Source: Candidatus Poseidoniales archaeon (GTDB lineage Archaea > Thermoplasmatota > Poseidoniia > Poseidoniales > Poseidoniaceae). From it: a stretch of 64,000 nt of DNA. A program made the translations under genes and the position numbers. Location: assembly GCA_003602415.1 (NCBI GenBank), contig QQSK01000013.1, positions 10,152 to 74,151 of the forward strand, given 5' to 3'. Below the pieces are notes generated by a model, which worked only from the letters and a program-made list of their open reading frames with translations, had not been told where the DNA came from and did no database searches. How positions within the stretch are numbered: the first letter of the stretch is position 1; each line of letters starts with the position of its first letter. This document shows, piece by piece, positions 3-51,300 of this stretch.

Positions 3-1946
3 GGGGAGTTCGGTGGAGGATGGGTAGCTCGAGTAATTCTCGATGGAATGTCAATCGGCGAATCTACATGGCCTCCTTCTATTTCTTGGGTCGAAGAACA
101 ATTGAATAAATCAGAAACAAAAGGATCCTCAAATCTCGTATTCACTTCAAGTCTAACTCCAAATGAGAACATAACTGGCACATGGACTGCAAATCATGTC
201 TTCAATAATGGACTGGGCCTACCTTTCATTCCAGGTGTACAAGCAGGCATCGCGAGTCAGGTTGATAGATTCCTTGATGGAGATGTAAATCAGTTGGAAA
301 GTTTGCTAGAATCAATGATTTATCTAAATGGCCGAGAAGCTGTTTGTTGTGTCATTGATGATTCTGCGGTTATTTTTGAGACATTTAGTATCGATGCTGA
401 AATCGATTTTTCTTCCGAGTCTTGGGGATGGAATGAATCTGGCACCGTATCAGCATCTCGTTCACATATTGATTTAATGAGGCTGGAAGTTCCTTTCCAA
501 AACGACTTACGCCAATCTACGCCACTTACAATCACAACCGATGGCGGATGGCAATACTTGTCCAGTCCATTGAATGAATGGATCGAAGGTACAACTTCAG
601 AATTCACTTTACAACGTGACGAATCTTCAATTTCAGGGTTTTACACTATCACACTAGGACCTAACAGTGCCCCTGTTTTGTCCATGCAGGAAGATTATGC
701 TCTACCTTGGGATAATACGTCATACGATTTCAACGTAATAATCGACGATGCACCTCTATCTCAGCATAATTGTGAATGGAACATATCTGGAAGTAATAAC
801 AACCTCGGTGTTAATTTGTCAGCATATCCTCCTGATTCAATCCTGCCAATTTCAGTAATTTGTGTTGACGAGGGTGGTTTGAATGGAACTTGGAATGGTA
901 GTTTTGTTTTGGATGACGAATCTCCATGGATAAATGCTAGTGATGAGATTCAGATTATCCCTCCTGGAATGTTCTACTGGGATTTGATGGTTGGCGATGA
1001 CCATGATCAAAACCTCAGGGTGTATTGGACCAGCAACAAATCAGATGATTGGTGGTATACCGGAGATGTCCTTGATATCGTCTTCAATCCTGATTCAAAT
1101 TTGAATTCAATCAATGATAACATTAGTGAAAGACACAAGCAAAGAAACCCTGTGCAATATTGGTTATCGGCTGAAGTCTCCGATGATGTTGGCCACACAG
1201 TTTTTGGAAATTGGACAATCCAATTGACCGATGTTTCAGGGCCAGTTATTCTTGCATCGGTTGAAGATTATGACGTAGATGAAGGGTGGGGTGAAGCGGC
1301 ATTAGTCTCGAGGCCAGGAGATATATTACGACTGAATTTAACCGAATCCTTTGACGACCATTCTTCAATTGACAAAATTAATTTTTCAATTAGTTTATTG
1401 GATAAAGAATATAGTGATTTATCATGGTCTGAAGTTCAGTATTGGGAACTACCCGAATTGCCGGTTGGCTATCATCAAATCAATGTGATTGGATATGACG
1501 AACAAGGTAATGTGGCAGGTAATACATTTGGAGTAGCGGTAGCTCCTCCAATTACTAGAGATTTGGAAATCATCGATATCCAATCATCCTCAACAGAGAT
1601 TGAGCCGGGAGAAAACCACTTCTGGGTCACAGTTCAAAATAACGGTGCTAGCACGACCGAATTTATTTTGTGTAGCGGCAACGATTGTGTCGAATCAGTG
1701 GTAGGTCCTTCCAGTTACGCTCAGACTACAACATCGATAGTTTCTATGAAAGTAGATTTGGATTGGTTTGAAACATTCTCTGTAGAATTATCTTATCTTG
1801 ATGATTCCAATCAAACAGTGGTAAAACATTCCACAAGTGAATATGATGCTGGAGTCGGTTTAGGTGGACTGGAATTGTTCATCTTCGTTACTATTTCAGT
1901 ACTGGCAATAATATGGTTACGTTCAAGAAATGAACCGAGATTCTGA
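3..1946 (+). CDS. Secreted or cell-surface protein, 5'-truncated at the window edge, with a C-terminal transmembrane anchor
   Basis: The reading frame is open from nt 3 with no upstream stop, so the N-terminus lies outside the window. It is a beta-rich, Asn/Ser/Thr/Asp-rich sequence with a CARDB-like stretch (PGENHFWVTVQNNGAST). A hydrophobic helix (LELFIFVTISVLAIIWL) and a basic tail sit at the C-terminus. Confidence 0.5.
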   Translation, partial: GEFGGGWVARVILDGMSIGESTWPPSISWVEEQLNKSETKGSSNLVFTSSLTPNENITGTWTANHVFNNGLGLPFIPGVQAGIASQVDRFLDGDVNQLESLLESMIYLNGREAVCCVIDDSAVIFETFSIDAEIDFSSESWGWNESGTVSASRSHIDLMRLEVPFQNDLRQSTPLTITTDGGWQYLSSPLNEWIEGTTSEFTLQRDESSISGFYTITLGPNSAPVLSMQEDYALPWDNTSYDFNVIIDDAPLSQHNCEWNISGSNNNLGVNLSAYPPDSILPISVICVDEGGLNGTWNGSFVLDDESPWINASDEIQIIPPGMFYWDLMVGDDHDQNLRVYWTSNKSDDWWYTGDVLDIVFNPDSNLNSINDNISERHKQRNPVQYWLSAEVSDDVGHTVFGNWTIQLTDVSGPVILASVEDYDVDEGWGEAALVSRPGDILRLNLTESFDDHSSIDKINFSISLLDKEYSDLSWSEVQYWELPELPVGYHQINVIGYDEQGNVAGNTFGVAVAPPITRDLEIIDIQSSSTEIEPGENHFWVTVQNNGASTTEFILCSGNDCVESVVGPSSYAQTTTSIVSMKVDLDWFETFSVELSYLDDSNQTVVKHSTSEYDAGVGLGGLELFIFVTISVLAIIWLRSRNEPRF

Positions 1947-1972: not shown

Positions 1973-3718
1973 ATGGATGGCTTTGTAGATCTAGATGGCG
2001 CAATCAAAGCCGAGGCCAAAAGTCGTGTAGATCGTATCGAGAAGTTGGCAGGGCTATCTGCATTGATTATGCTGTCTGCAGCAACTTGGCTTGCTTGGCC
2101 GTCTTTAGAATCAGCGATTAGCGGTGGTTCTATGACTTCTGATTTGAAGTATGCAATGGTCATCATTGCATGGGGAGTTTTTGTTCAAGATCTTGGAGTA
2201 ATGGACAAAAAAGCAAGGTCAAGAATAGGTACAGTGGCTACGATTTCTTGGTTACCAATTGTCATTATATCTGTTGATTATCTTGAAGGAAATGTTTCTC
2301 AAATCATTGGTATGCTGATTTTGTTAGGCGTATCTTCATCGCTTTTCGCAACTAGCAGGTCGATTCTGCAAGGCGATGTATCAGTGATGAAATATCGAGG
2401 CTTAATGGGAGGCTTGGGTCTAATTCTATCGATTTCTCTACTTACAACCACTACTATTGATGACAATTCATCATATATTCAGGTCGGCTTTTGTGCCATA
2501 GGTGCCTTATTGATTCTAATCGATTGGTTTGGTAGTGATGATATGAGGCCATTGAGAAAAGAGTTCGATGGAAGATTAAACTCCTTGGAAAGTCGTCTTT
2601 TAATTTTGAAGAGCCAAGGCTCAGCAGTCGATCAAGCAGCTAGCCTGGTTATGACTGCTAGAGAAGAAGGTCATAGAGACCCTGAATGGGGGATGCGTCT
2701 ACTCGATGAAGCCGATGAAGATATTGAGCGTTCACTATCTCTGGCAGGAGATGTTGAAGACATCAAGAAGGACTCTTTGGAATCTGTAGAGAAAGCAGAG
2801 TCCATTGCTCCAGTAGCCAAGCGCCCTAGAAAGGCGTGGGACATGGGTCAGAGAGAAGTTGAACTTGGGAGCCTTAGAGAAGGTGAAGCGCTTTTCAGAC
2901 AAGCCAAAAAGCGTGCAAATGAAGTTATTCAGTGGTGGCAACTAGCGGAAGAAGCCATCAGAGAAGGTGCCGCTTTGTTAGCAAAATCTCCTCATGCCCA
3001 AAGTAATCTAGAGGAAATTTTGGCAGATGCTCGAAAGAAATTATCTGCTGAAAAGCCAAAGAAAGCTTACGAGTTTGCAATGGTTATTCCAGAGCAACTA
3101 TCTGCTTCTGACGATGCTCTGGTTATTGCAGAATCAGCAGTCAAAGAAGCTGCTAGACAATTAAAATCAGCTGATGGCATAAACAAAGAATTGCTAGAAG
3201 AAAGACTCGAACATGCTGAGGAGGCATTAGAAAAAGGAAATTCAGCCCAAGCAAAGGGGCTTTCTGATGGAATCGTTAGAGAGATTCTCGCTGAAAGAGA
3301 AGCTATGGACGATGTTAGACGGGCTCTAAGACAGAAAGTGCATTTGGTTTCACGTTGGGCAGAGAGGGACGATGTTTCGGATTGGAATGCCAGATTATTA
3401 GAGATCGAAGAATCGGCGGATTCCTTGGAATGGACTCATGCAGCAACATTACTCGAGCGATTAACAACTGATTTGGATGCTGAAGGTAAGGCTAGTGATG
3501 AAGCAAATGAATTACTAGATTATGTCTTAGAGGAATGGGATATTCTCAGAAATCAATGTGATGCTAGCGGAATTAAAGTTGATGATGAAGATAGACGTTC
3601 CACTGAAGAAGCAATAGCATTGGCTAGTGAATCGCATAAGGCAGGAAGAATCGATGAATCTCTCGAATCTCTTGGCTTAGCAGATGGTTTCATGGAGAAA
3701 CTAAGGCGAAGAGTATGA
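1973..3718 (+). CDS. Polytopic membrane protein of about 6 TM helices, with a roughly 380-aa alpha-helical and coiled-coil C-terminal domain
   Basis: Six hydrophobic segments lie in the first 200 aa. The remainder is E/A/R/L/K-rich with heptad-like periodicity. No enzymatic motif was recognised. Confidence 0.45.
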   Translation: MDGFVDLDGAIKAEAKSRVDRIEKLAGLSALIMLSAATWLAWPSLESAISGGSMTSDLKYAMVIIAWGVFVQDLGVMDKKARSRIGTVATISWLPIVIISVDYLEGNVSQIIGMLILLGVSSSLFATSRSILQGDVSVMKYRGLMGGLGLILSISLLTTTTIDDNSSYIQVGFCAIGALLILIDWFGSDDMRPLRKEFDGRLNSLESRLLILKSQGSAVDQAASLVMTAREEGHRDPEWGMRLLDEADEDIERSLSLAGDVEDIKKDSLESVEKAESIAPVAKRPRKAWDMGQREVELGSLREGEALFRQAKKRANEVIQWWQLAEEAIREGAALLAKSPHAQSNLEEILADARKKLSAEKPKKAYEFAMVIPEQLSASDDALVIAESAVKEAARQLKSADGINKELLEERLEHAEEALEKGNSAQAKGLSDGIVREILAEREAMDDVRRALRQKVHLVSRWAERDDVSDWNARLLEIEESADSLEWTHAATLLERLTTDLDAEGKASDEANELLDYVLEEWDILRNQCDASGIKVDDEDRRSTEEAIALASESHKAGRIDESLESLGLADGFMEKLRRRV

Positions 3719-4678
3719 TTACATCATTCGCTCTTTCATTTCACAAGCCTTACAGACACTTCCGCTACACATCTGTCCACACTGTGGACAATTGATTGGT
3801 TTGATGGAATTCAAACTACTTCCAGCCATCTGTTGTAATCTTTTGACATCGTCTGCCATTCGCAGAAGCCCATGCCTTGTCCCTGGGACATCTGCTTCCA
3901 TCATGGCAATGGTTTCTCTATGCCTGAACCTTAGAGCTCCTTCGCCGTGAGGGCACTCTTCATGGTGGATGGGTAATCCTTTGTGTAATGCGTAAAGGTG
4001 AATCTCTTGTTCAGGGACCCATCGAAGTGGAACAATCCTTGGCGCCATGCCTTCCAACGGAGTATTTGTGTGAGGGGCTAATCTCAGTGTTCTTTCGAGA
4101 TCACCATTTTGCATATTCATCATTATGGTTTGAGCCATATCGTCAAGGTTGTGGCCTAGTGCGATAACATCAGCACCTACACGCGCTGCAAGATGATTGA
4201 TGCCTTGTCGTCTAAAAACTCCACAATAGGAGCAGGGCGCTTTCTTATCTCCTGTCTCGATAATTTTCTCTACCACTTCATCCATTTCTTTGAAACCCAA
4301 ATCTGGGTAAGAAACAGTTTCGAATTGAACACCAAGACTTTCACACAACTCTCTCGCACATTCTAGCGATGGTGGACGATATCCTTCAATGCCTTCATCT
4401 ACACAACCTCCAATGATTGTTACATCTCTTCGCTTTCCTAGATTTTCATGAATTCTTTCTAGGAGTACGGCAGAATCTTTACCTCCAGAAATAGCCACAA
4501 GAATGGTTGTATTCTCTCCTTTGCGGAGCACTAATTGTTCCCGCAAAGCCTTGGAAACTTTCTTTCTAACACTCTCAGCAAGATGTGCTCCACACATCAT
4601 ACGGCCTGAATAAACCTGGTGATGAATCGCCGGATTGCGACATTTGTCACAACTTGGGATATCAAACAGGTCGGCCAT
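3719..4678 (-). CDS. tRNA 2-thiolation PP-loop ATPase of the NcsA/TtuA family
   Basis: It carries the PP-loop motif SGGKDS. CxxC...CxxC zinc-finger pairs flank it at the N-terminus (CDKCRNPA...CGAHL) and the C-terminus (CPQCGQMCSGSVCKAC). I placed the start at MADLFD. The ORF track's longer start at 4762 would add 28 non-conserved residues. Confidence 0.6.
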   Translation of the reverse strand: MADLFDIPSCDKCRNPAIHHQVYSGRMMCGAHLAESVRKKVSKALREQLVLRKGENTTILVAISGGKDSAVLLERIHENLGKRRDVTIIGGCVDEGIEGYRPPSLECARELCESLGVQFETVSYPDLGFKEMDEVVEKIIETGDKKAPCSYCGVFRRQGINHLAARVGADVIALGHNLDDMAQTIMMNMQNGDLERTLRLAPHTNTPLEGMAPRIVPLRWVPEQEIHLYALHKGLPIHHEECPHGEGALRFRHRETIAMMEADVPGTRHGLLRMADDVKRLQQMAGSSLNSIKPINCPQCGQMCSGSVCKACEMKERMM

Positions 4679-4816
4679 GTTTGGTCCAAGAGGTTCTAGC
4701 CTTGATGTGAACGGTTGAAAAAAGCAATTGAAAAATTGATTTTTCAATTGGAATACGAGCATGATAATCCCCGTCCATCAAAAATTTAGTTGGCAAAATC
4801 AAAACACTCCACAAAT

Positions 4817-4829
4817 CGCCCTACGGGCG
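4817..4829. promoter_or_regulatory. Hairpin CGCCC-TAC-GGGCG in the divergent intergenic region between the tRNA thiolase and roadblock genes
   Basis: It has a 5-bp GC stem and the same TAC/GTA loop as the other copies. Confidence 0.25.
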
Positions 4830-4885
4830 TTGTAGAAAGCCAAACTTCTTGAAGCCGGTTTCAACCTGAAGCAATTTGAGCGCGC

Positions 4886-5227
4886 ATGATGCAACGCATT
4901 CTGGCCGGATTCTCAGCCCTACCAGGAGCTGACCAAGCATACATCATTTCTCGTAGAGATGGCTTGGTTGCTTCAGTTGGAAAGAGAGGTCGTGCACCGA
5001 TGGTTGAACATGCCACCCAAATAATCCAAGCGATGGAAAGACTTGGACAAAACAAAGCCGTTGGAAGAGGGTTGGAGTTTTGGACAGAAGGAGAGGGAAT
5101 GCTTCTAGTAACTCGATTGAGCGAAGATGCAAGCCTGATAGTTTCTGGTAAGAAGGGTGGCAGGATAGCCAGGTGGCGACACGCCGTAGAATGCGATGTT
5201 GAAATGCTAAACTCGTTGATGAGGTGA
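4886..5227 (+). CDS. Roadblock/LC7 (MglB-like) domain protein
   Basis: It is 113 aa and carries the roadblock signature ...AYIISRRDGLVASVG... . Its stop overlaps the start of the next ORF by 4 nt (ATGA), indicating operon coupling. Confidence 0.55.
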   Translation: MMQRILAGFSALPGADQAYIISRRDGLVASVGKRGRAPMVEHATQIIQAMERLGQNKAVGRGLEFWTEGEGMLLVTRLSEDASLIVSGKKGGRIARWRHAVECDVEMLNSLMR

Positions 5228-8200
5228 CGGACATGTTCGATCTACCATATGGAATGCTAATTGATAACGAAATTGATGTCAGTGATGGCTCAATCATGCC
5301 ATTTGAACACGGTTCAATATCTACGTATCTTGGACGTAGGTCTACTGCGAGCGGACATAGAATCGTCAGAGCGGGCAGAGTCGTAGGTTGGGTTGCTGAA
5401 CCTGCTAAAGGCAAAGTTTTGCTTTGTGGTCTAGCTGCTAAGCAAAGACTCGAGGAATTAGAATCTGATTCACATCGCTTAACTGCTAGAGCATGGACTC
5501 AATCGTCATTAGGCTCCGTTGCTGAGATTATTCCTGAAGCATTTGAGCACGCTGCAGACTTGCGAGGACTGATTGGTTCTGGCGATTCATTGGAGCGTTT
5601 ACTTTCTCGAGATCTATCTGCTGTCTTGGCGAATCTGGTTGTTAGGCCGGAGGTACGTGGAGGGATTGCGGTTGATTCTGGAATGTTAATCGACGATGCA
5701 GGAGACCTACCCTCTAGTGCAGAATCCTTAGCGGCACAGGTTGGAGAAACCTTGGCTGGAAGAAAAGCGATGGCTAGCGACTTAGGATTATCCGGTGCAG
5801 GCCACTGGACACTACACACAGACAATGGAGCATTATTGTTGGCGGAAGCCGGCGATGTCGCACTAGCAATTTGGACAGAATCAGATGTCGACCACGGTCG
5901 ACTGATTAGCCAAATCGCTGCTATGATGGACGGACAAATCGATGCAATGGGGTCTAGAGGTGAAGCACTTACCGATGGCCATGTAGTTAGAGAAGGAAGA
6001 GGCGGAACCGATGCAATCATTTCCATGCTAACCACCGCTGTAGAAGAAGGATTGACCGGCCATTTGACGGCCGGCAAATCCTCCAAAGCAATTCGTGTTG
6101 CACTGGTTAAGGGTGTACCTGTGGCCATGCAAGCGCCTGGAAAAACAAAGATTGTCGAGGCGGTAAACTCACTTTGTGAATCTCGACGCGTTCTATCATT
6201 GCATAGACTGCCTGTTGGAACAATTCTTGGAACAGAATCAGGTAATGTTCCCGATTTCAATTTAGAAACCTTCTGTGAGGAATTATCTACAACAAGAACT
6301 CGTTCTGAATCCCGCCAAACTCTAATCAGACAAACTATGAATCAGATATATGGTTTTGAAATAGGTCTACAAAAACTCAAGAAAGAGCGTACTAGGTTCG
6401 AATTCGCAATTTCAGTAGCAACTCCTTCAACAGGTTTGACTACCGTGGATACATCCACAGGAATTGATGATGGATTAAGAAGAAAATTAGAGAAATCTGA
6501 AATTCAACTCTCAGATGCGAATCAAGAGATTGCTTCACTTCGTGTTGCCCTTGATTCAGCACAGAAAGCAGAAACTGCAGCTAAAGTCAATGCTAACGAA
6601 GCCAATAGGCATACTTCAGATATTCAAGATAAAATTGCAGCGTATAACAAAACAATCGACCAGTTACAACTCGATTTATCCGCAGCACAATCCAGTTCCG
6701 AGAATGCAGAGGCTCGTAGTGATAGGTTGTCAAAGAGAGTGAACGAGTTAGAGCACCAACTCAGTGAAAGAGCGGTTGAATTGGCTAGAATTCTTGGAGA
6801 TAGTAAAGCGAGTAATGAATTGTCTTCCAAGATAGAAGAAATGGCATCCAAGGAAGCAGCATTATCCAGTGATATCGATTCACATTCTGCGACCTTGTCG
6901 AGTATTCGTTCAAGGATAGATGATGATCAACGCCGTCAGAGAATGATAGAAGAACAGGTAGAAGCTGCTAGAGACAAACATCGTCGTGCTCAAGGAGAAT
7001 TATCAGAATTGGAATCCAAGATCAATGACTCTCAATTGCGTCTAAAGCAAATTGAAGCGGAATCAAGAGTTGCTCGAGAGCGAACTCAAGAAGACCGAAT
7101 TAGGCTGAACGAACAAGAAAACCGTGCTGCTAACATCCAATCCGAGATGCGTGAATTAATGGATGAAAGAAGGCAAGTTCTGAAAGAACTAGGTGATTTA
7201 GGTGCTAGAAGAGGACAAGCTGAAGCTGAATTGTCGAACTTACTAGACCAAGCAGAAGCATTAGCATTCGCTCATGAAGAAGCGCTATCCGACATCAAAG
7301 AGGCAGAATTACTTCGCGCAAAATTATCTGAAGAACCCCTTGCTCAAGCATTGTTAGAAGATGGTGCTCAATTTGATGGACTAGGGCCAGTATTAGAACG
7401 CTTAGAACATGCTAGAACACTAGGATACTCGGTGTCATTGCTTGACCGTGCGGTAGAAAGAGCATTACAGGTCATTCAAGGATGCGTTGACCACGTTGCA
7501 ACAACGCCTAGACACCTATTATCGACAGAAGTAATGTCGTTATTGGAGAGACAGGTCCCACAAACTGCAGGAGCAGTTCGTGGATTAGCAAGATGGTCGG
7601 TTCAACAAAGACTCGAACATCAATTGGGTGAAACAGTAACTAATCTGGTTCTAGATTTAGAAAATCTTCTCGAAGATTACGACAGATCGATTACTATGCT
7701 TAGAAGAATCAGAAATGTTCTCGAGCAATTAGAGAAACTCGGCGCTCCTCCTGAACAGGTTCAGGCTTTGATGAACAATACAAGAAGACCTGAGTCTTTG
7801 CCGGTTCTTGCTCGCGAGACTCGTACTCTGATTCAGAAGGCTCTGGATGACATCCACCTAGAAGCAGACATGAGAGATGCAGGCTCTGCAGTCAAATTAG
7901 AAGCGACAACCAGCGCCCTCGAAGAACTTCTTACCCAATTAGATGCAAGTGGCTTTGTCAAGGGTGAAGTTCGTGGTGCGCTTTGGGATTTCAAGCGAGA
8001 AGGGATTCTACCTTTCGAGCGTGACTCTGTTCCTGCTGGAGAAAGAGAACCGGTCAATGATGCTGCAATAGAGCAAATGAAAGGCGAATTAATCGACGAG
8101 GAAGTTGCTGTTGCAGTTGAAGTTAGTGAAATTACTGAGGAATGGGAAGAATTGTCGACACCAGTGGACCAGGATGATAGTGAATCAGTATCTGAGGATG

Positions 8201-43500: not shown

Positions 43501-43532
43501 AATATGCCAGAACTCGTAGGTTCTGGGGTTAA
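40518..43532 (+). CDS. lhr: Lhr-like SF2 DEAD/DEAH-box helicase
   Basis: It has Walker A VVAPTGSGKT, motif II DEVH, and SAT and helicase C motifs. The C-terminal domain has a Cys4 zinc ribbon (CCLRCTS...CLKCGG). The track's start at 40473 overlaps the upstream gene, so Met 40518 is preferred. Confidence 0.75.
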   Translation: MPMAEGVFSKLEQSLQKALEERNWSPTPVQQATQDDIAAGLDRLVVAPTGSGKTMAAVLPLLDRCLREKWTGMSILYITPLRALNRDVDRRLEEITSAVGLRLGLRHGDTPQSERTKHVRNPPNVMITTPETFQLMFTGSKLRELLRTVEAVVIDEVHEMADGERGWQLSVGLSRLEIFKGSKVQKIGLSATVGNPVQVSRWLSKEAKPIDAVAPRTTELSVDAIIQSPEDEIGSLELAISPRAHATLRGLADIVAKKSPCLIFVNSRNSAETVSQRLQAIAPDLSIGVHHGSLAKETRTKMEDDLRNGSLQGLVCTSSLELGIDVGSVNHIVQIRSPRSVDRMLQRVGRADHRLGGIGSGHLLSWECDDIFESAVIARKAVSGEIEPVEWRDMPLSVAANQIVMMVHSHGALPIDLVTESISGALQFENWNRSDTIAIGNVLADRWVIRCVEDTSTVPWYRWPHDVWQELVRVSKKALPEQPKLAFDEEPSEELARLTFEVPAKFAKGWVSRSGKTRQWVSHHLSMIPDKQSYRVRDAVTRQSLGNVDEAFVLSLNDGGEDQDGSQRRFVMAGRTWIVVDADPEQNELLVAPVSDQGHAPQWVGELPPTPADVAREAGRLRRLFAIDLGLISDEEIEELDPAELLKGHSELDDYPLNGEAKGILADVITTHFNSAKMIPSERLITIEDRDEALVINSCQGNRINEALGHYLLAMASTRSGKWGRLIVEPCRISLQVGGVRPAELIEWLCETPPEALEGVLSVTLPNSREVRWRFAQIAKIFGILRHGVDPRKINIQALLKKYRGTPVMQEVLSKLFHERMDIVGATDVMRAIQSGLIGLEVTATGPLGISSRSEKDLLLPNFNNQQVKARLEGRLMNERAVLCCLRCTSIRRFRVARYPEINDSKKCLKCGGQMLACAREGLEKQLIDWVKSDDEKVRDRMMKNAQSVANRGMDAILALMGRGIGEATCQRLMRKVQRGDKDGLLEAIHIAEIEYARTRRFWG

Positions 43533-44683
43533 TCAGAATCTAGTTCCAACAAGTTAACTCTCTTGGCAGCCTCGACAACATCTCCTTCTTCCCACCAGTC
43601 CACAGCGATGAATGTAGGCCTCTTGCCATGGGTGTCAATACATTCGATGGCCCTATCGACCATGAAATCAACATCATTCGCCTCACCAGCACGGGTAGGG
43701 TCAGATAGTCCAGCTTGATTCTTCAACCAATTATTCATGTGAAATGCTGGTTGATTAGAATCTCCTCTCAATGGTTCACAATCCATAGACGCAGTGTCAT
43801 CATCCGCATAATTGGTAGTCCAACTGTGAGTCAAGAAATCATGGAAATATGGGTGTGCTGAATCACCAGGTTGTTCCCAGAATACAACCAATCGCTTGTC
43901 CATGTTTATCATTTCAATCAATGTAGGCCATTCTGCATTCATCTCATGTATATACATTTGATCCGTAAGTCCCACGTCATCAAAAATTTCCTTCAGGTGG
44001 TCTCCTTCTACGTGATTCTCAATAAGTAAAGTCACGATGTCACGGTCTTCGCTACTCATTTCAGATTCTAATTTGTTCAACCAGTTCCAAGGGTCGACAG
44101 CGCCATATGTACAGGGGCTAAATCCTCTATCTGAATCTCCATGACAGAATCGAACTTGAGACACGCTTTGGTCTGCAGTTGTTAGATAATGTGTATCGAG
44201 CATGAATGCTCTCATTCCAGCATTCCATTGTGCTTGGAAGCCAGTTCGATGATTGCTTGCAGGGTAGTAGATATTATCCTCATGTGTCGAGAAGGAATTA
44301 TGAGTTTCAGGGAAAGTCACTTGGTCGTATGTTCTGTGACAAAGAATAACCAAACCGTTACACGGGATGGTCTCTAGATATTGACAGGTACCATCGTCTT
44401 GGGTAGCGTTTGAATCATAATTTTCTGCTTCAGAATCTGTGCATCCTAGAACAGGTTCGGGTTCAGGCTCCTCATATTCGCACGAACCATCATCTTCCTC
44501 TGCCTCCGGATTGTAATTTTCAGCATCGGAGTCCGTACAACCTCGTATGATTTCAGCCTCAACGATTTCTTCGTTTTGCGAATCATCTTCACTATTCAAA
44601 TCGTCAAGATAAGTACATCCAGGTAGAAGTAGCAAACTTATCGCTACCAGAACCTTGAATGTGTCCATAGTACACATGGCCAC
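43529..44683 (-). CDS. Secreted lipoprotein with N-terminal tandem Cys-containing acidic repeats and a PI-PLC X-box-like phosphodiesterase domain
   Basis: It has a signal and lipobox (LLLLPGCTY). Two ~25-aa repeats read GCTDSDAENYNPEAEEDDGSCEYEE and GCTDSEAENYDSNATQDDGTCQYLE. FPETHNSFSTH...RAFMLDTHY resembles the PLC-like catalytic His motifs. Confidence 0.4.
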   Translation of the reverse strand: MAMCTMDTFKVLVAISLLLLPGCTYLDDLNSEDDSQNEEIVEAEIIRGCTDSDAENYNPEAEEDDGSCEYEEPEPEPVLGCTDSEAENYDSNATQDDGTCQYLETIPCNGLVILCHRTYDQVTFPETHNSFSTHEDNIYYPASNHRTGFQAQWNAGMRAFMLDTHYLTTADQSVSQVRFCHGDSDRGFSPCTYGAVDPWNWLNKLESEMSSEDRDIVTLLIENHVEGDHLKEIFDDVGLTDQMYIHEMNAEWPTLIEMINMDKRLVVFWEQPGDSAHPYFHDFLTHSWTTNYADDDTASMDCEPLRGDSNQPAFHMNNWLKNQAGLSDPTRAGEANDVDFMVDRAIECIDTHGKRPTFIAVDWWEEGDVVEAAKRVNLLELDSD

Positions 44684-46396: not shown

Positions 46397-48652
46397 ATGG
46401 GAGAGTCTGCATCACAGGACCATGTCAAGCGCGTAGAACGTGAATTGGCTAAAGAAGAGAGTCTTCTATCGAAAATGATTGAGCAGGCTCCGGGCATGTT
46501 AGGCATGGCTGGAATGTTCATCGTCACCATATTGTTGGGCATTTGGTTACAACCTTGGTTCAATTCTGCAGGGTTACAAGCCTTTGGTGAATCCGGTTCA
46601 ACACAAGTTCGGTGGATTGCTCTTGAATTGGTAGCAATTTTTGCCTTCACTTTCCTAATCCTGTGGCTTGCAAAAAACCATCTTCAGCATTTGATTAAGT
46701 ATGGTTTGTTATTCGTTTTATTCCTAGCACTTTGCTATACAACTGTGCCAGGAGCACATATCTTGCTAGTTCCTGAAATCGAAACCGAAGCCTTCGTTTT
46801 CTCTGAAGAAAATGAAATCGAAGAAGAGTTGATTGCAGTAATTTCTGATGGTTCTACAATTACTCACAAGGCCATCTATGCTGAAAATGCATCCAACCAT
46901 AGCCTACAAGTTTCGAAGAGGGGGATTGATTCATCTCTCAATTGGACCATAGAATTGAATGCCTTCCCCGGCGTTCCAAATCAATTCGCAATCACTGAAG
47001 GCGAGTATGGATTTACTGTCAACAATAATGCTTGGATTTGGACACTTGACAAATCAACAGGCACAGTTCTCAGCAAATATGCGTGCTTTGAGTTAGAAAA
47101 CTGGAATGGAACATTCGTAAATGCTACTGAGGACCCATCGATTGGGGCTTGTGTCACGGCTCTCGAAGTTATCGAAGATCCTGATGCTGATGTAGGGCAG
47201 GCCAAAGGTGCACTGTACATCACTACCGCTGCAAACACAATAGTTAGGACAGCAACATTTGCCGACTCTTTTGTGGATAACGAATTCGTAGATGACGCTG
47301 GCATTCACCGCTTTGAAGCACAGTGGTCATTCCCTCAATTGCAATTAAACGACAAAATTATTGAAAACCGTCAATATGATGAAGACAGTTTGTTACTAGC
47401 AACTCCAGTTGGGGTTGCTATGATTGAATTAGAACAATCTGCAGCTATATTCCCAGGCCCTGGGCCTGCGCCAAGCGGTTGGGTCGATCAATGCAGTCTA
47501 GAATGGATTTACACTGCTGATTCTAATCCAATAACTGCATTTGAAGTTGTTACTAGCCCATGGGATGATGAACAAAACCTAGCAATGGTTGGCCAACTGC
47601 AAGGAGAGATTAGTGCATGGATTATCGATGATGATATCGATGAGTTCTTCGAAGAAGAAGAACGGTTTCGTGGAGATGATGCATTTACTGGCCCAATCAT
47701 CGATATTGTAGGTGCCGACTTAGACGGAGAATTTGGGGATGAACTTTGGATTGCAGACGGAGATGGAATTCACGGTTTGTTCTATTCCTCACTCATCGAA
47801 TATGTTACCATCGATGCTGAACTTGAAGTAAATGATTCGATTTCAGTAAATGGCTTTGATGTTCAGACAATCAGTTATGGTGAATATAACGACTCTCAAG
47901 GAAACCCATTGTTCTCAATGGAAGTTTCAAGCGGAGTATTCGACCCAGATACAATGTACAACTCATACGGAATTGAGTGGGATAATACTGCATTCTTCCT
48001 TGGAATCGGTTTAGCAGTGTTACTAATGGTGGCTTTGATCATTAGGCCAGAATGGTATGTGGTGAATACGGTCGGCGTTCTTGTTGGTGCAGGTGTAATC
48101 GTAATGCTAGGAGTAACATTTGTTCCTACTTTGATTGTAATCTTCATGGTACTAGCAGCGATTTATGACGCATGGGCGGTCTACCGTTCCAAGCACATGC
48201 TCGACCTTGCAGATACAATGATTGGACTAAATCTTCCAATCTTATTGGTTGCTCCTCAAGAGTCTGGATATTCGATGCTAGATAACAATGAGAGCATCAG
48301 GCCATCTGAAGATACCGTTATTGTAAGCGAGAAAACAGATGCTCCTGTCAAGAAAACCATGGTCAAGCGAAAGAAGCCAAAGGAAGCGATGTTCATGGGA
48401 TTGGGCGACGTTATATTCCCTGGTATGCTGGTAATTTCTTGTGTAAATTTCATTGCGACCGATGGCTTGGCTATTGGAATTTCAGCCTTGATTGGAGGTC
48501 TCGTAGGATATCTAGTATTGATGGGATATGTAGCATCGGGTAGACCACAAGCCGGACTACCTCTCTTGAACGGCGGTGCGATACTTGGTTACATCATCGG
48601 AGGCTTACTCTTCGTTGGTAGTGCGGCCTTTTCGTTTGGTATTTCTTTGTAG
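46397..48652 (+). CDS. Presenilin/signal-peptide-peptidase-like (A22) intramembrane aspartyl protease with a ~400-aa ectodomain insertion
   Basis: The catalytic YD motif (LAAIYDAWAVY) and GLGD motif (FMGLGDVIFPGM) sit in consecutive TM helices. A charged cytoplasmic loop (KKTMVKRKKPKE) separates them. A PAL-like motif (QAGLPLL) lies in the final TM region. A large hydrophilic domain lies between the N-terminal TM helices and the catalytic core. Confidence 0.55.
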   Translation: MGESASQDHVKRVERELAKEESLLSKMIEQAPGMLGMAGMFIVTILLGIWLQPWFNSAGLQAFGESGSTQVRWIALELVAIFAFTFLILWLAKNHLQHLIKYGLLFVLFLALCYTTVPGAHILLVPEIETEAFVFSEENEIEEELIAVISDGSTITHKAIYAENASNHSLQVSKRGIDSSLNWTIELNAFPGVPNQFAITEGEYGFTVNNNAWIWTLDKSTGTVLSKYACFELENWNGTFVNATEDPSIGACVTALEVIEDPDADVGQAKGALYITTAANTIVRTATFADSFVDNEFVDDAGIHRFEAQWSFPQLQLNDKIIENRQYDEDSLLLATPVGVAMIELEQSAAIFPGPGPAPSGWVDQCSLEWIYTADSNPITAFEVVTSPWDDEQNLAMVGQLQGEISAWIIDDDIDEFFEEEERFRGDDAFTGPIIDIVGADLDGEFGDELWIADGDGIHGLFYSSLIEYVTIDAELEVNDSISVNGFDVQTISYGEYNDSQGNPLFSMEVSSGVFDPDTMYNSYGIEWDNTAFFLGIGLAVLLMVALIIRPEWYVVNTVGVLVGAGVIVMLGVTFVPTLIVIFMVLAAIYDAWAVYRSKHMLDLADTMIGLNLPILLVAPQESGYSMLDNNESIRPSEDTVIVSEKTDAPVKKTMVKRKKPKEAMFMGLGDVIFPGMLVISCVNFIATDGLAIGISALIGGLVGYLVLMGYVASGRPQAGLPLLNGGAILGYIIGGLLFVGSAAFSFGISL

Positions 48653-48662
48653 GTGAAATGAA

Positions 48663-49950: not shown

Positions 49951-51300
49951 ATGCGTAGTGCGGTCTTCATAATTTTGACATTCTTCCTCGCATCATTCAG
50001 TGGATGTTTTGGTGAAGACTTAGAAGAAGAATCAGTAATTCCTAAAATCACAGTTGATGATGTTTCTAGTGCAATACGAGGGCAATACATGTCTATTGCA
50101 GTAGACTCAACTGTAGATTGGACCGTAAACCGTTCACCAGGTCTATTCCTTATGGATGAGTTTGGTGTATTGAGAGATGCAGACGTGATGACATTCCCGG
50201 CATCTCAAGAAACACTTAATTTCCTTGTCATGGATTCTGAAAGAGATGACATTCAGCTGGAATTTACAGCGGGTGAGGAAATATGGAATGTAACTCTGAT
50301 GTTGGAAGATAGTTCAGAAATGATGTTAGTAGATGGTCGCAGGGCATACGAAACCGCAGATATGTTGACCTCACAATACAACAATCGTTGGTGTGCATCA
50401 GCATCCATACACGAAGGTGGTGCAGCATATGAGAATGCAGCCGAAGCTATGGAAGATAAGATGTGGGATATGGGTTTTGATCACGTAGAAATAACTCGAT
50501 ACCCAGATGATCCAGACCAATTGAATATTGTAGGCTACAATTGGGGAAGAGTAAACCCTGATGAATACATTGTAATTGGCGGGCATTTCGATATTGCATA
50601 CATGTTCACTCCACCAGGAGGAGGGACTAATGAAGGTGCAAATGATGACACTTCTGGTTCTACAGTATCCTTGGAGATGGCTCAAGCATTAGCACAAATG
50701 GAGTTTGACCACACAGTTGTTGCTGGACTGTGGGCATGTGAGGAAGAAGGCCTGTTGGGAACCAGAGCATACGTAGCCAATCTACCAGAGAATGTCTCGG
50801 TCCGAGCATACATGAACTTCGATATGGTAGCGTTAAATTATCCAATCACTCCACTCACCGAACCAGTAATAGGTCCAGCAGGAGAAATTTTCGAGCCAAC
50901 AAAGTATGATTGGTCTATCAGTGTCGCTGGAGCAAGCCAGGAAAATATGGAAAGAATGCATGATTGGGTTGGTACGACTATCGAAGAAGATTTGGCATAC
51001 GAGCCAACAGAAGGAAATCCGATTTACTGGCAGATAGCAGAGTCTTGTGCTTCTGACCATTGCTCTTTCTTCCAAGCAGGTTATCCAACTTTCAATTTCT
51101 TTAGCCCAGGAGGAGACATTTCATTCTGGCAAGAATGGCATTCACCTTCAGATACCTTCGAATTCATGACGGCCAAAGCAGGTGGCCCAGATGGAATGGC
51201 CAGTGGGTTCAACAGTCTTGTGTGGGCAGCCCTTGACCTATTCGTCAGAGTCGACAACGCAGAAAACTTCCACGGCAATTGGAAAGAATCCACTGAATAG
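49951..51300 (+). CDS. Secreted M28-family zinc aminopeptidase (lipoprotein)
   Basis: It has a signal and lipobox (FSGCFGE). M28 metal ligands are present: GGHFDIAY, NDDTSGS, CEEEGLLGT. Confidence 0.65.
   Translation: MRSAVFIILTFFLASFSGCFGEDLEEESVIPKITVDDVSSAIRGQYMSIAVDSTVDWTVNRSPGLFLMDEFGVLRDADVMTFPASQETLNFLVMDSERDDIQLEFTAGEEIWNVTLMLEDSSEMMLVDGRRAYETADMLTSQYNNRWCASASIHEGGAAYENAAEAMEDKMWDMGFDHVEITRYPDDPDQLNIVGYNWGRVNPDEYIVIGGHFDIAYMFTPPGGGTNEGANDDTSGSTVSLEMAQALAQMEFDHTVVAGLWACEEEGLLGTRAYVANLPENVSVRAYMNFDMVALNYPITPLTEPVIGPAGEIFEPTKYDWSISVAGASQENMERMHDWVGTTIEEDLAYEPTEGNPIYWQIAESCASDHCSFFQAGYPTFNFFSPGGDISFWQEWHSPSDTFEFMTAKAGGPDGMASGFNSLVWAALDLFVRVDNAENFHGNWKESTE

Follow-up and report, generated by a model that had tools for sequence, protein, structure and literature searches.

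Why would a presenilin-type intramembrane protease of an archaeon carry some 400 extra residues between two of its membrane helices, and on which side of the membrane would these residues act? The question is raised by a gene located at 46397..48652 (+) in a 64,000-nucleotide stretch of DNA from a Candidatus Poseidoniales archaeon (contig QQSK01000013.1; the whole stretch is referred to as the window). That presenilin-type proteases choose their substrates without a sequence motif is a long-standing puzzle, and elsewhere part of the answer lies in ectodomains, i.e. the nicastrin subunit of γ-secretase and the PA domain of SPPL2. We report that the gene is an intact open reading frame (ORF; ATG to stop, 751 amino acids), that its product, judged from profile matches and motifs, belongs to the PSH family of A22 proteases with predicted enzymatic activity, and that residues 127-527 are modelled as a seven-bladed β-propeller. 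The original prediction, made from the sequence letters of the stretch, had described an ectodomain-bearing protease here, and the ORF, the catalytic motifs and the hydrophilic segment were all found where it had placed them. The parts of the gene, with TM denoting transmembrane helix, are as follows:

46397..48652 (+): whole gene, 751-amino-acid PSH-type GxGD intramembrane aspartyl protease with an inserted β-propeller (the end counts the stop codon)
46397..46495 (+): N-terminal segment, residues 1-33, predicted cytoplasmic, with the conserved charged helix KRVERELAKE (helix 8-17 in the model)
46496..46774 (+): TM1-TM3, residues ~34-126, with the motif AFGESGST in external loop 1, aligned with PSH residues 9-88; based on model helices 20-58, 67-93 and 97-124 and on the match to NF041679 from position 2 onward after excision of the insert
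46775..47977 (+): predicted seven-bladed β-propeller ectodomain, residues ~127-527 (AlphaFold), with the invariant C230/C252 pair
47978..48187 (+): TM4-TM6, residues ~528-597, with the catalytic Asp591 in YD (model helices 530-549, 553-570 and 576-597)
48188..48391 (+): TM6a-like helix (600-610) and disordered K/R-rich TM6-TM7 loop, residues ~598-665, predicted cytoplasmic
48392..48649 (+): TM7-TM9, residues ~666-751, with the catalytic Asp671 in GLGD and the PAL-like P722-L-L

Membership of the A22 family was upheld by the profile searches. Specifically, residues 533-738 are matched by PF06550 ('Signal-peptide peptidase, presenilin aspartyl protease') with an E-value of 1.1e-47 (163.4 bits vs a cut-off of 23.9), and the equivalog model NF041679 ('presenilin family intramembrane aspartyl protease PSH') aligns in two stretches that together score 209.3 bits (cut-off 125). 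With residues 130-525 deleted in silico, the remaining 355 residues give a single contiguous NF041679 match (positions 2-279, 221.7 bits). PF04258 (A22B) reaches 23.4 bits vs a cut-off of 23.3, over a partial region only and far below the PF06550 match, and PF01080 (Presenilin) misses its threshold (11.2 bits vs a cut-off of 34.3, E = 0.16). By these scores we class the protein as a presenilin homologue, neither presenilin proper nor convincingly a signal peptide peptidase (SPP) of the A22B type.

The only solved relative matched by sequence is PSH/MCMJR1, the di-aspartyl presenilin/SPP homologue of the archaeon Methanoculleus marisnigri (PDB 4hyc and 4hyg, 1e-28). Residues 34-115, 540-634 and 661-741 of the window protein align with PSH residues 9-88, 111-205 and 210-294, respectively, which places the ~400 extra residues between TM3 and TM4 of the PSH fold. 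A Foldseek search of the PDB with the full-length model recovered 4hyg, 4y6k and 4hyc at 30-32% identity for the membrane part, and numerous β-propellers for the middle section. The two proteins have in common the nine-TM GxGD fold with YD in TM6 and GxGD at TM7, the AGLP(P/L)LNGG motif before TM9 and a long cytoplasmic TM6-TM7 loop; they share about 40% core identity and are colinear once the insert is removed. PSH/MCMJR1, however, comprises 301 amino acids and joins TM3 to TM4 by a short segment, the place taken in the window protein by the ~400-residue propeller; the window protein also carries an additional charged N-terminal extension of ~33 residues.

A Kyte-Doolittle scan gave three hydrophobic segments before residue 126 (34-55, 71-93 and 97-125), directly followed by the hydrophilic segment 127-527, and six after residue 528; the original prediction of a large domain at about 130-520 behind three TM helices was thus close to what was found. 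This segment is acidic, with 74 D/E vs 12 K/R and an isoelectric point of 4.05. The full-length AlphaFold model, built on a 30-sequence alignment (pTM 0.58), has nine long helices and the short TM6a-like helix, an all-β middle section (pLDDT 85-93) and a disordered loop at 597-669 (pLDDT <50).

The catalytic motifs were predicted to lie in TM helices, and both the model and the hydrophobicity scan agree with this, in that YD, GLGD and PLL are all in or at hydrophobic segments. Y590-D591, aligned with 'AVYDAISVY' of PSH, is inside model helix 576-597 (TM6), G668-L-G-D671, aligned with 'GMGD', stands at the start of helix 669-685 (TM7), and Q718-AGLPLLNGG, aligned with 'QAGLPPLNGG', places P722-L723-L724 at the start of helix 720-746 (TM9). 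Among 87 long-form relatives, the set used here for all motif, cysteine, sequon and K+R counts, Y590, GLGD and PLL are invariant (87/87), as is D591 in 86, the sole exception being an X. The PAL-type motif is P-L-L and not literally P-A-L, as in PSH itself, and MCMJR1 has been described as being without an obvious PAL (PMC2947513). The charged loop noted earlier between YD and GLGD was likewise present: residues ~620-665 hold about 11 K/R, have pLDDT <50 and are poorly conserved, the TM6-TM7 loop being only ~20% identical to that of the window protein in distant long-form relatives. The core dN/dS (ratio of nonsynonymous, dN, to synonymous, dS, substitution rates) against the related contig L090 is 0.026, and strong purifying selection acts on an intact catalytic core.

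When residues 130-525 were modelled alone, on 61 sequences, AlphaFold returned a confident structure (pLDDT 92.2, pTM 0.90) with 27 β-strands arranged 4+4+4+4+4+4+3, and on this arrangement we assign a seven-bladed propeller fold to the segment. Foldseek with this model yielded 211 matches at E ≤ 0.001, and chains containing β-propellers dominate the top 50 listed. These are generic WD40-like scaffolds (TM-scores about 0.25-0.5, 6-14% identity), the TM-scores for propellers were lower with the full-length than with the propeller-only model, and no specific propeller family stood out with either. Similarly, no named propeller family (WD40, FG-GAP/VCBS, PQQ, Kelch and others) matched the ectodomain at the Pfam gathering threshold, a Pfam scan of the ectodomain alone gave nothing even at E ≤ 10, and Beta-prop_BBS7 gave sub-threshold matches in 21 of 61 family members. 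An FG-GAP/VCBS assignment, prompted by 'DLDGEFGDELWIADGDG', was dropped, as one distant member had one sub-threshold FG-GAP_3 match and there was none family-wide. An exhaustive phmmer search of the ectodomain against 1.84 billion representative proteins returned 29 matches. Of the seven that were scanned for domains, six proved to be PSH fusions and one was a cohesin-domain protein of 451 residues, matched only weakly (E 9e-5). The other matches are mostly short fragments, and no clear donor or stand-alone relative was found among these representatives. At the level of sequence the inserted domain therefore appears to be effectively an orphan.

Two cysteines, C230 and C252, are invariant (87/87), and 73 of the 87 domains have exactly two cysteines, which suggests a disulfide. 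The other invariant ectodomain residues are W183, W310, G222, G399, G403 and D441; throughout the long forms the fold, the cysteine pair, three tryptophans, several glycines and D441 are kept. Because the fold and the invariant residues persist even at 17-26% ectodomain identity, and because the ectodomain dN/dS is 0.09 (window vs L090), the domain is likely to be functional. The linkers on both sides of the propeller are short and conserved.

On which side of the membrane the propeller resides was approached by the positive-inside rule. The predicted location of the N-terminus, loops and C-terminus, and their mean K+R content, are as follows:

N-terminus: predicted in, mean K+R 4.2
Loop 1: predicted out, mean K+R 0.2
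Loop 2: predicted in, mean K+R 3.5
Loop 4: predicted in, mean K+R 0.4
Loop 5: predicted out, mean K+R 0.0
Loop 6: predicted in, mean K+R 10.8
Loop 7: predicted out, mean K+R 0.0
Loop 8: predicted in, mean K+R 1.5
C-terminus: predicted out, mean K+R 0.0

The N-terminus and loops 2, 4, 6 and 8 together hold about 20 K+R vs 0.2 for loops 1, 5, 7 and the C-terminus, a clear positive-inside signal which predicts the N-in/C-out orientation of presenilin and hence an outside location of the TM3-TM4 insert. SPP-type proteases have the opposite orientation (PMC2947513); this N-out arrangement is not predicted here, the charge counts favouring N-in/C-out. The outside location also agrees with the invariant cysteine pair and with an excess of N-X-S/T sequons (mean 5.9 per ectodomain vs 3.5 expected, observed exceeding expected in 97% of the members). 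In the window protein such sequons are N164, N167, N182, N237, N242, N479 and N498. Accordingly, the extracytoplasmic placement that had been proposed for the domain is borne out as a prediction, with the propeller tethered by its linkers to the outer ends of TM3 and TM4.

Is the insertion peculiar to this gene, or does it characterise a lineage? In a first homologue search 119 clusters were retrieved, nearly all of 705-772 amino acids with full query coverage, besides a few shorter fragments; those named after an organism carry the labels Poseidoniales, Poseidoniaceae or broader archaeal groups, and the long forms are automatically annotated as PSH or 'presenilin-like A22 family membrane protease'. 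With one genome per GTDB species, 554 loci encode relatives, of which the best 80 are all long-form and take in Poseidonia spp., 'Candidatus Poseidonia alphae' and a metagenome-assembled genome (MAG), 'MGIIa-K1' (72% identity). Uninterrupted frames of 700-826 codons are present in at least 76 of these 80 species-representative genomes, the exceptions being contig ends.

With the insert-free core as query, compact proteins of 345-396 amino acids (47-51% identity) were found, in clusters with members labelled Candidatus Thalassarchaeaceae or Marine Group II. The survey of related archaea called for by the original prediction thus separates long forms in Poseidoniales from compact forms in Thalassarchaeaceae (Marine Group IIb), where an orthologue of 354-381 amino acids is present at the same locus. 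Long and compact loci share the gene order, with a divergently transcribed Mur-ligase-like gene, followed further out by a dCMP deaminase gene, on one side of PSH-serS, and because they occupy the same chromosomal position we regard the two forms as orthologues and not paralogues. In the window there is no second PSH gene, i.e. tblastn with a compact orthologue matches only 46397..48652. We read the gene as the one PSH orthologue of this Marine Group IIa archaeon (Poseidoniaceae), inherited vertically.

The compact orthologues, positioned between the Mur-ligase-like gene and serS, are 49-54% identical to the window protein across both halves of the core but have only 3-8 residues opposite window residues 124-526. 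In the pairwise comparison with one of them, P0192, window residues 23-123 and 527-741 match residues 9-109 and 118-345, and the ~403 window residues 124-526 stand opposite eight residues; in an alignment of 190 sequences the compact forms have 3-4 residues in this region. Conversely, the external TM7-TM8 loop is ~18 residues longer in the compact Group IIb proteins (P0192 ~280-300 vs window 686-691).

In a neighbour-joining tree of the core (190 sequences) one branch parts all long from all compact forms, except for P0168, which is an N-terminally truncated fragment of a long form. When the tree was rooted with MCMJR1 the long forms were monophyletic with 61% bootstrap support and the compact forms with 97%. 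The outgroup MCMJR1 also has the compact form, and parsimony would accordingly place one gain of the insert at the root of the long forms; from these sequence comparisons the propeller insertion looks like one lineage-specific event, present lineage-wide in Marine Group IIa.

One long-form locus, L034 (CAUYXQ010000166.1), is labelled Thalassarchaeaceae. Its adjacent serS is nearer to the window type (67% vs 54-57%) and we consider the label doubtful. L034 is one of a group of long forms (L033, L034 and L036-L038) sharing 42-43% identity with the window protein. Unless the label is an error, the group is a deep-branching lineage with a bearing on the date of the insertion. Another member of the group, L038 (PBRN01000113.1), is a 9.8-kb contig with a long-form PSH gene and a Marine Group II-type serS in a MAG titled 'Pseudobdellovibrionaceae bacterium NP951', and is probably a mis-binned archaeal contig.

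What the propeller does is a matter of inference, and here our preference is slight. Given the position of the insert at the outer end of TM3, the short conserved linkers and the precedents set by nicastrin and SPPL2, we lean towards the view that in Group IIa PSH the outer propeller serves in cis as a substrate filter or recruiter. It would then act as an exosite over the extracellular mouth of the protease, in one of two ways: by sterically shutting out membrane proteins with bulky ectodomains, such that only short-stub substrates would be cleaved, or by binding the juxtamembrane or ectodomain part of particular substrates. Given the presenilin-like orientation, type I (N-out) single-pass proteins or the C-terminal anchor stubs of surface proteins would be plausible substrates, although this is speculation. 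In published substrate-bound structures of γ-secretase, TM3 is among the helices around the bound substrate. According to a γ-secretase review, TMD2 becomes ordered upon substrate binding and entry routes run via TMD2/3 and TMD2/6.

Three known systems are comparable. The window protein shares no homology with nicastrin, with the PA domain or with any of the named propeller families. As in the presenilin-nicastrin pair, a large ectodomain would lie over the extracellular face of a presenilin-type core with N-in/C-out orientation (predicted for the window protein). Nicastrin, however, is a separate subunit with its own TM helix, whereas the window ectodomain is a predicted β-propeller fused inside the protease chain, and no Aph-1 or Pen-2 partners are implied for the window protein. 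The fold of nicastrin is aminopeptidase/transferrin-receptor-like. The SPPL2 proteins resemble the window protein in being GxGD proteases with an extramembrane domain of their own, in cis and on the side away from the cytosol; their PA domain is N-terminal, behind a signal peptide, and of another fold. It is also much smaller than the propeller. The site-2 proteases of the RseP type have periplasmic PDZ domains inserted between TM helices, proposed to form a size-exclusion filter; RseP is, however, a metalloprotease of an unrelated catalytic class and its inserted domains have an unrelated fold. With respect to evidence for gating, nicastrin sterically hinders substrates and limits access to those with short ectodomain stubs (Bolduc 2016, as cited in PMC13507816), the same review of γ-secretase states that the nicastrin ectodomain contacts the juxtamembrane region of the substrate, and in the eukaryotic A22B proteases SPPL2a/b/c the N-terminal luminal PA domains influence substrate recognition and kinetics (PMC12043953). 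The latter also contradicts the earlier belief that A22 proteases are all compact, and an 'ectodomain-bearing A22 protease' is consequently no new category. The claim of a new architecture survives in a narrower form: our literature search found no paper that connects PSH, or any presenilin homologue, to Poseidoniales or to a propeller, and an archaeal PSH whose TM3-TM4 loop holds a seven-bladed propeller is apparently undescribed.

Several points weigh against a role of the propeller in substrate selection. For archaeal PSH proteins no experiment is known, nor any physiological substrate (PMC2947513), the topology is a prediction from sequence, and the full-length model, given its pTM, does not reliably show how the propeller is oriented towards the core. 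Moreover, the monophyly of the long forms is only moderately supported by the bootstrap value given above. The invariant ectodomain residues look structural and reveal no binding site. Finally, divergence is five- to eight-fold faster in the ectodomain than in the core, a rate as compatible with a passive steric shield, or with an immune or viral target, as with a specific substrate receptor.

Distant long forms are 58-70% identical to the window protein in the TM blocks and 21% in the ectodomain, and at core identities of 90-95% the ectodomain is only 44-60% identical. The sharpest case is L090, which encodes P0002 and has 96-100% nucleotide identity to the window across three upstream genes, both parts of the PSH TM core and serS; between window ~46797-48000 and L090 3400-4600, corresponding to the propeller segment, the identity falls to 72-78%. 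For the window vs L090 the rates are:

Propeller (130-525): dS 1.53, dN/dS 0.09
TM core: dS 0.19, dN/dS 0.026
TM6-TM7 loop (621-662): dS 0.04, dN/dS undefined (dN = 0)

The divergence extends to synonymous sites and hence does not reflect a faster evolution of the protein; the propeller is a deeply diverged allele on a near-identical backbone, and either homologous recombination or an old polymorphism is indicated. The two propeller alleles are each other's nearest relatives (76% amino-acid identity). Among 62 locus pairs with a core nucleotide identity of at least 90% the window/L090 pair is the strongest outlier (0.955 in the core vs 0.756 in the ectodomain). A milder discordance is seen for L121, L125 and L126, the reverse for L013/L098 and L041/L051, and none for most of the pairs.

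These data allow an extension of the filter or recruiter reading, which we regard as possible but tentative: the protein would be a natural single-chain 'presenilin plus nicastrin' whose surface propeller gates or selects substrates and is swapped between strains as a diverged allelic cassette. Such exchange might occur under viral pressure or might track strain-specific repertoires of surface proteins. When metagenomes were scanned for close strains one partial contig with the window allele (L141) was added, so the idea of cassette exchange rests mainly on the window/L090 pair.

The same divergence underlies the strongest rival, in which the propeller is unrelated to proteolysis and would be a surface interaction or adhesion module, or a virus target, anchored by the PSH core and under diversifying pressure at the population level. 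The low ectodomain identity at high core identity, the contrast in both nucleotide identity and dS between propeller and core in the window/L090 pair, and the milder or reversed discordance in other pairs would fit such a module, as would a second diverged tract in the neighbouring exported M28 peptidase. This tract, with 74-80% nucleotide identity to L090, covers window ~50200-51300 and beyond and starts inside the M28 peptidase gene (49951..51300), the first ~250 bp of which are 96-98% identical to L090. However, most close pairs have similar core and ectodomain identities, such that hypervariability is not general, only one allele pair is strong, and the ectodomain dN/dS indicates purifying selection. 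Furthermore, the insertion point, the linkers and the core are strictly conserved together clade-wide, which argues for functional coupling, and overall we consider the surface module unlikely.

Still less probable in our judgement is that the propeller is a ligand-sensing or regulatory domain, through which an external molecule, the S-layer or a partner protein would switch the protease in regulated intramembrane proteolysis. β-propellers are common as extracytoplasmic sensor domains, the Foldseek match at rank 35 (3v9f) is the extracellular domain of a hybrid two-component system, and the conserved TM3 and TM4 linkers could pass on movement. On the other hand, the domain does not specifically resemble any sensor family and matches no Pfam family at the gathering threshold, the invariant positions show no sign of a conserved polar pocket, and the neighbouring genes are of the housekeeping kind, with no regulator among them. 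It is very improbable that the protein is a catalytically dead pseudo-protease or that the long ORF is an artefact of gene fusion or assembly: although some database entries of the family are only 230-470 amino acids long, these trace to contig ends or to an indel-riddled long-read assembly, the motifs are invariant apart from the single X and the core dN/dS is very low, which effectively refutes the pseudo-protease for a protein whose activity is predicted from its sequence, and the artefact is rejected since independent assemblies, of at least 76 species-level genomes and at least 50 metagenome contigs, contain this full-length frame.

The long-read assembly in question is L009 (ERZ28548069 contig_13550_pilon, 2575-7649), a polished assembly in which PSH is split into four small ORFs and in which serS and the M28 peptidase are called as one 928-residue protein. 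Indel errors are the likely cause of this breakage, and errors of the same type probably explain many of the 230-470-residue 'short PSH' entries at 81-86% identity.

As to the neighbouring genes, serS starts 11 bp past the PSH stop codon (gap 48653-48662) and this adjacency is kept in every long or compact locus examined, on account of which PSH and serS are probably co-transcribed. The PI-PLC-like protein encoded at 43529..44683 (-) and the M28 peptidase encoded at 49951..51300 (+) have lipobox-like signal sequences (...LLLLPGC and ...LASFSGC, respectively), suggesting lipoprotein-type anchoring of both flanking exported enzymes.

Taken at its predicted structure, the archaeal enzyme offers a single polypeptide with a well-folded ectodomain next to TM3, a natural 'minus-domain' orthologue in the sister family and hundreds of natural sequence variants. 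If the propeller does gate substrates, this would provide a tractable prokaryotic model, with the compact Group IIb protein as a built-in control, for how an ectodomain controls substrate access in presenilin-type proteases; if it does not, the gene would still be a clean case of domain insertion into a polytopic membrane enzyme. Marine Group IIa archaea are among the most abundant archaea of the ocean, and Marine Group II archaea, which are uncultured, are major degraders of proteins and polymers in surface waters. The finding bears on the biology of the cell surface in these organisms and on what PSH does in archaeal physiology.

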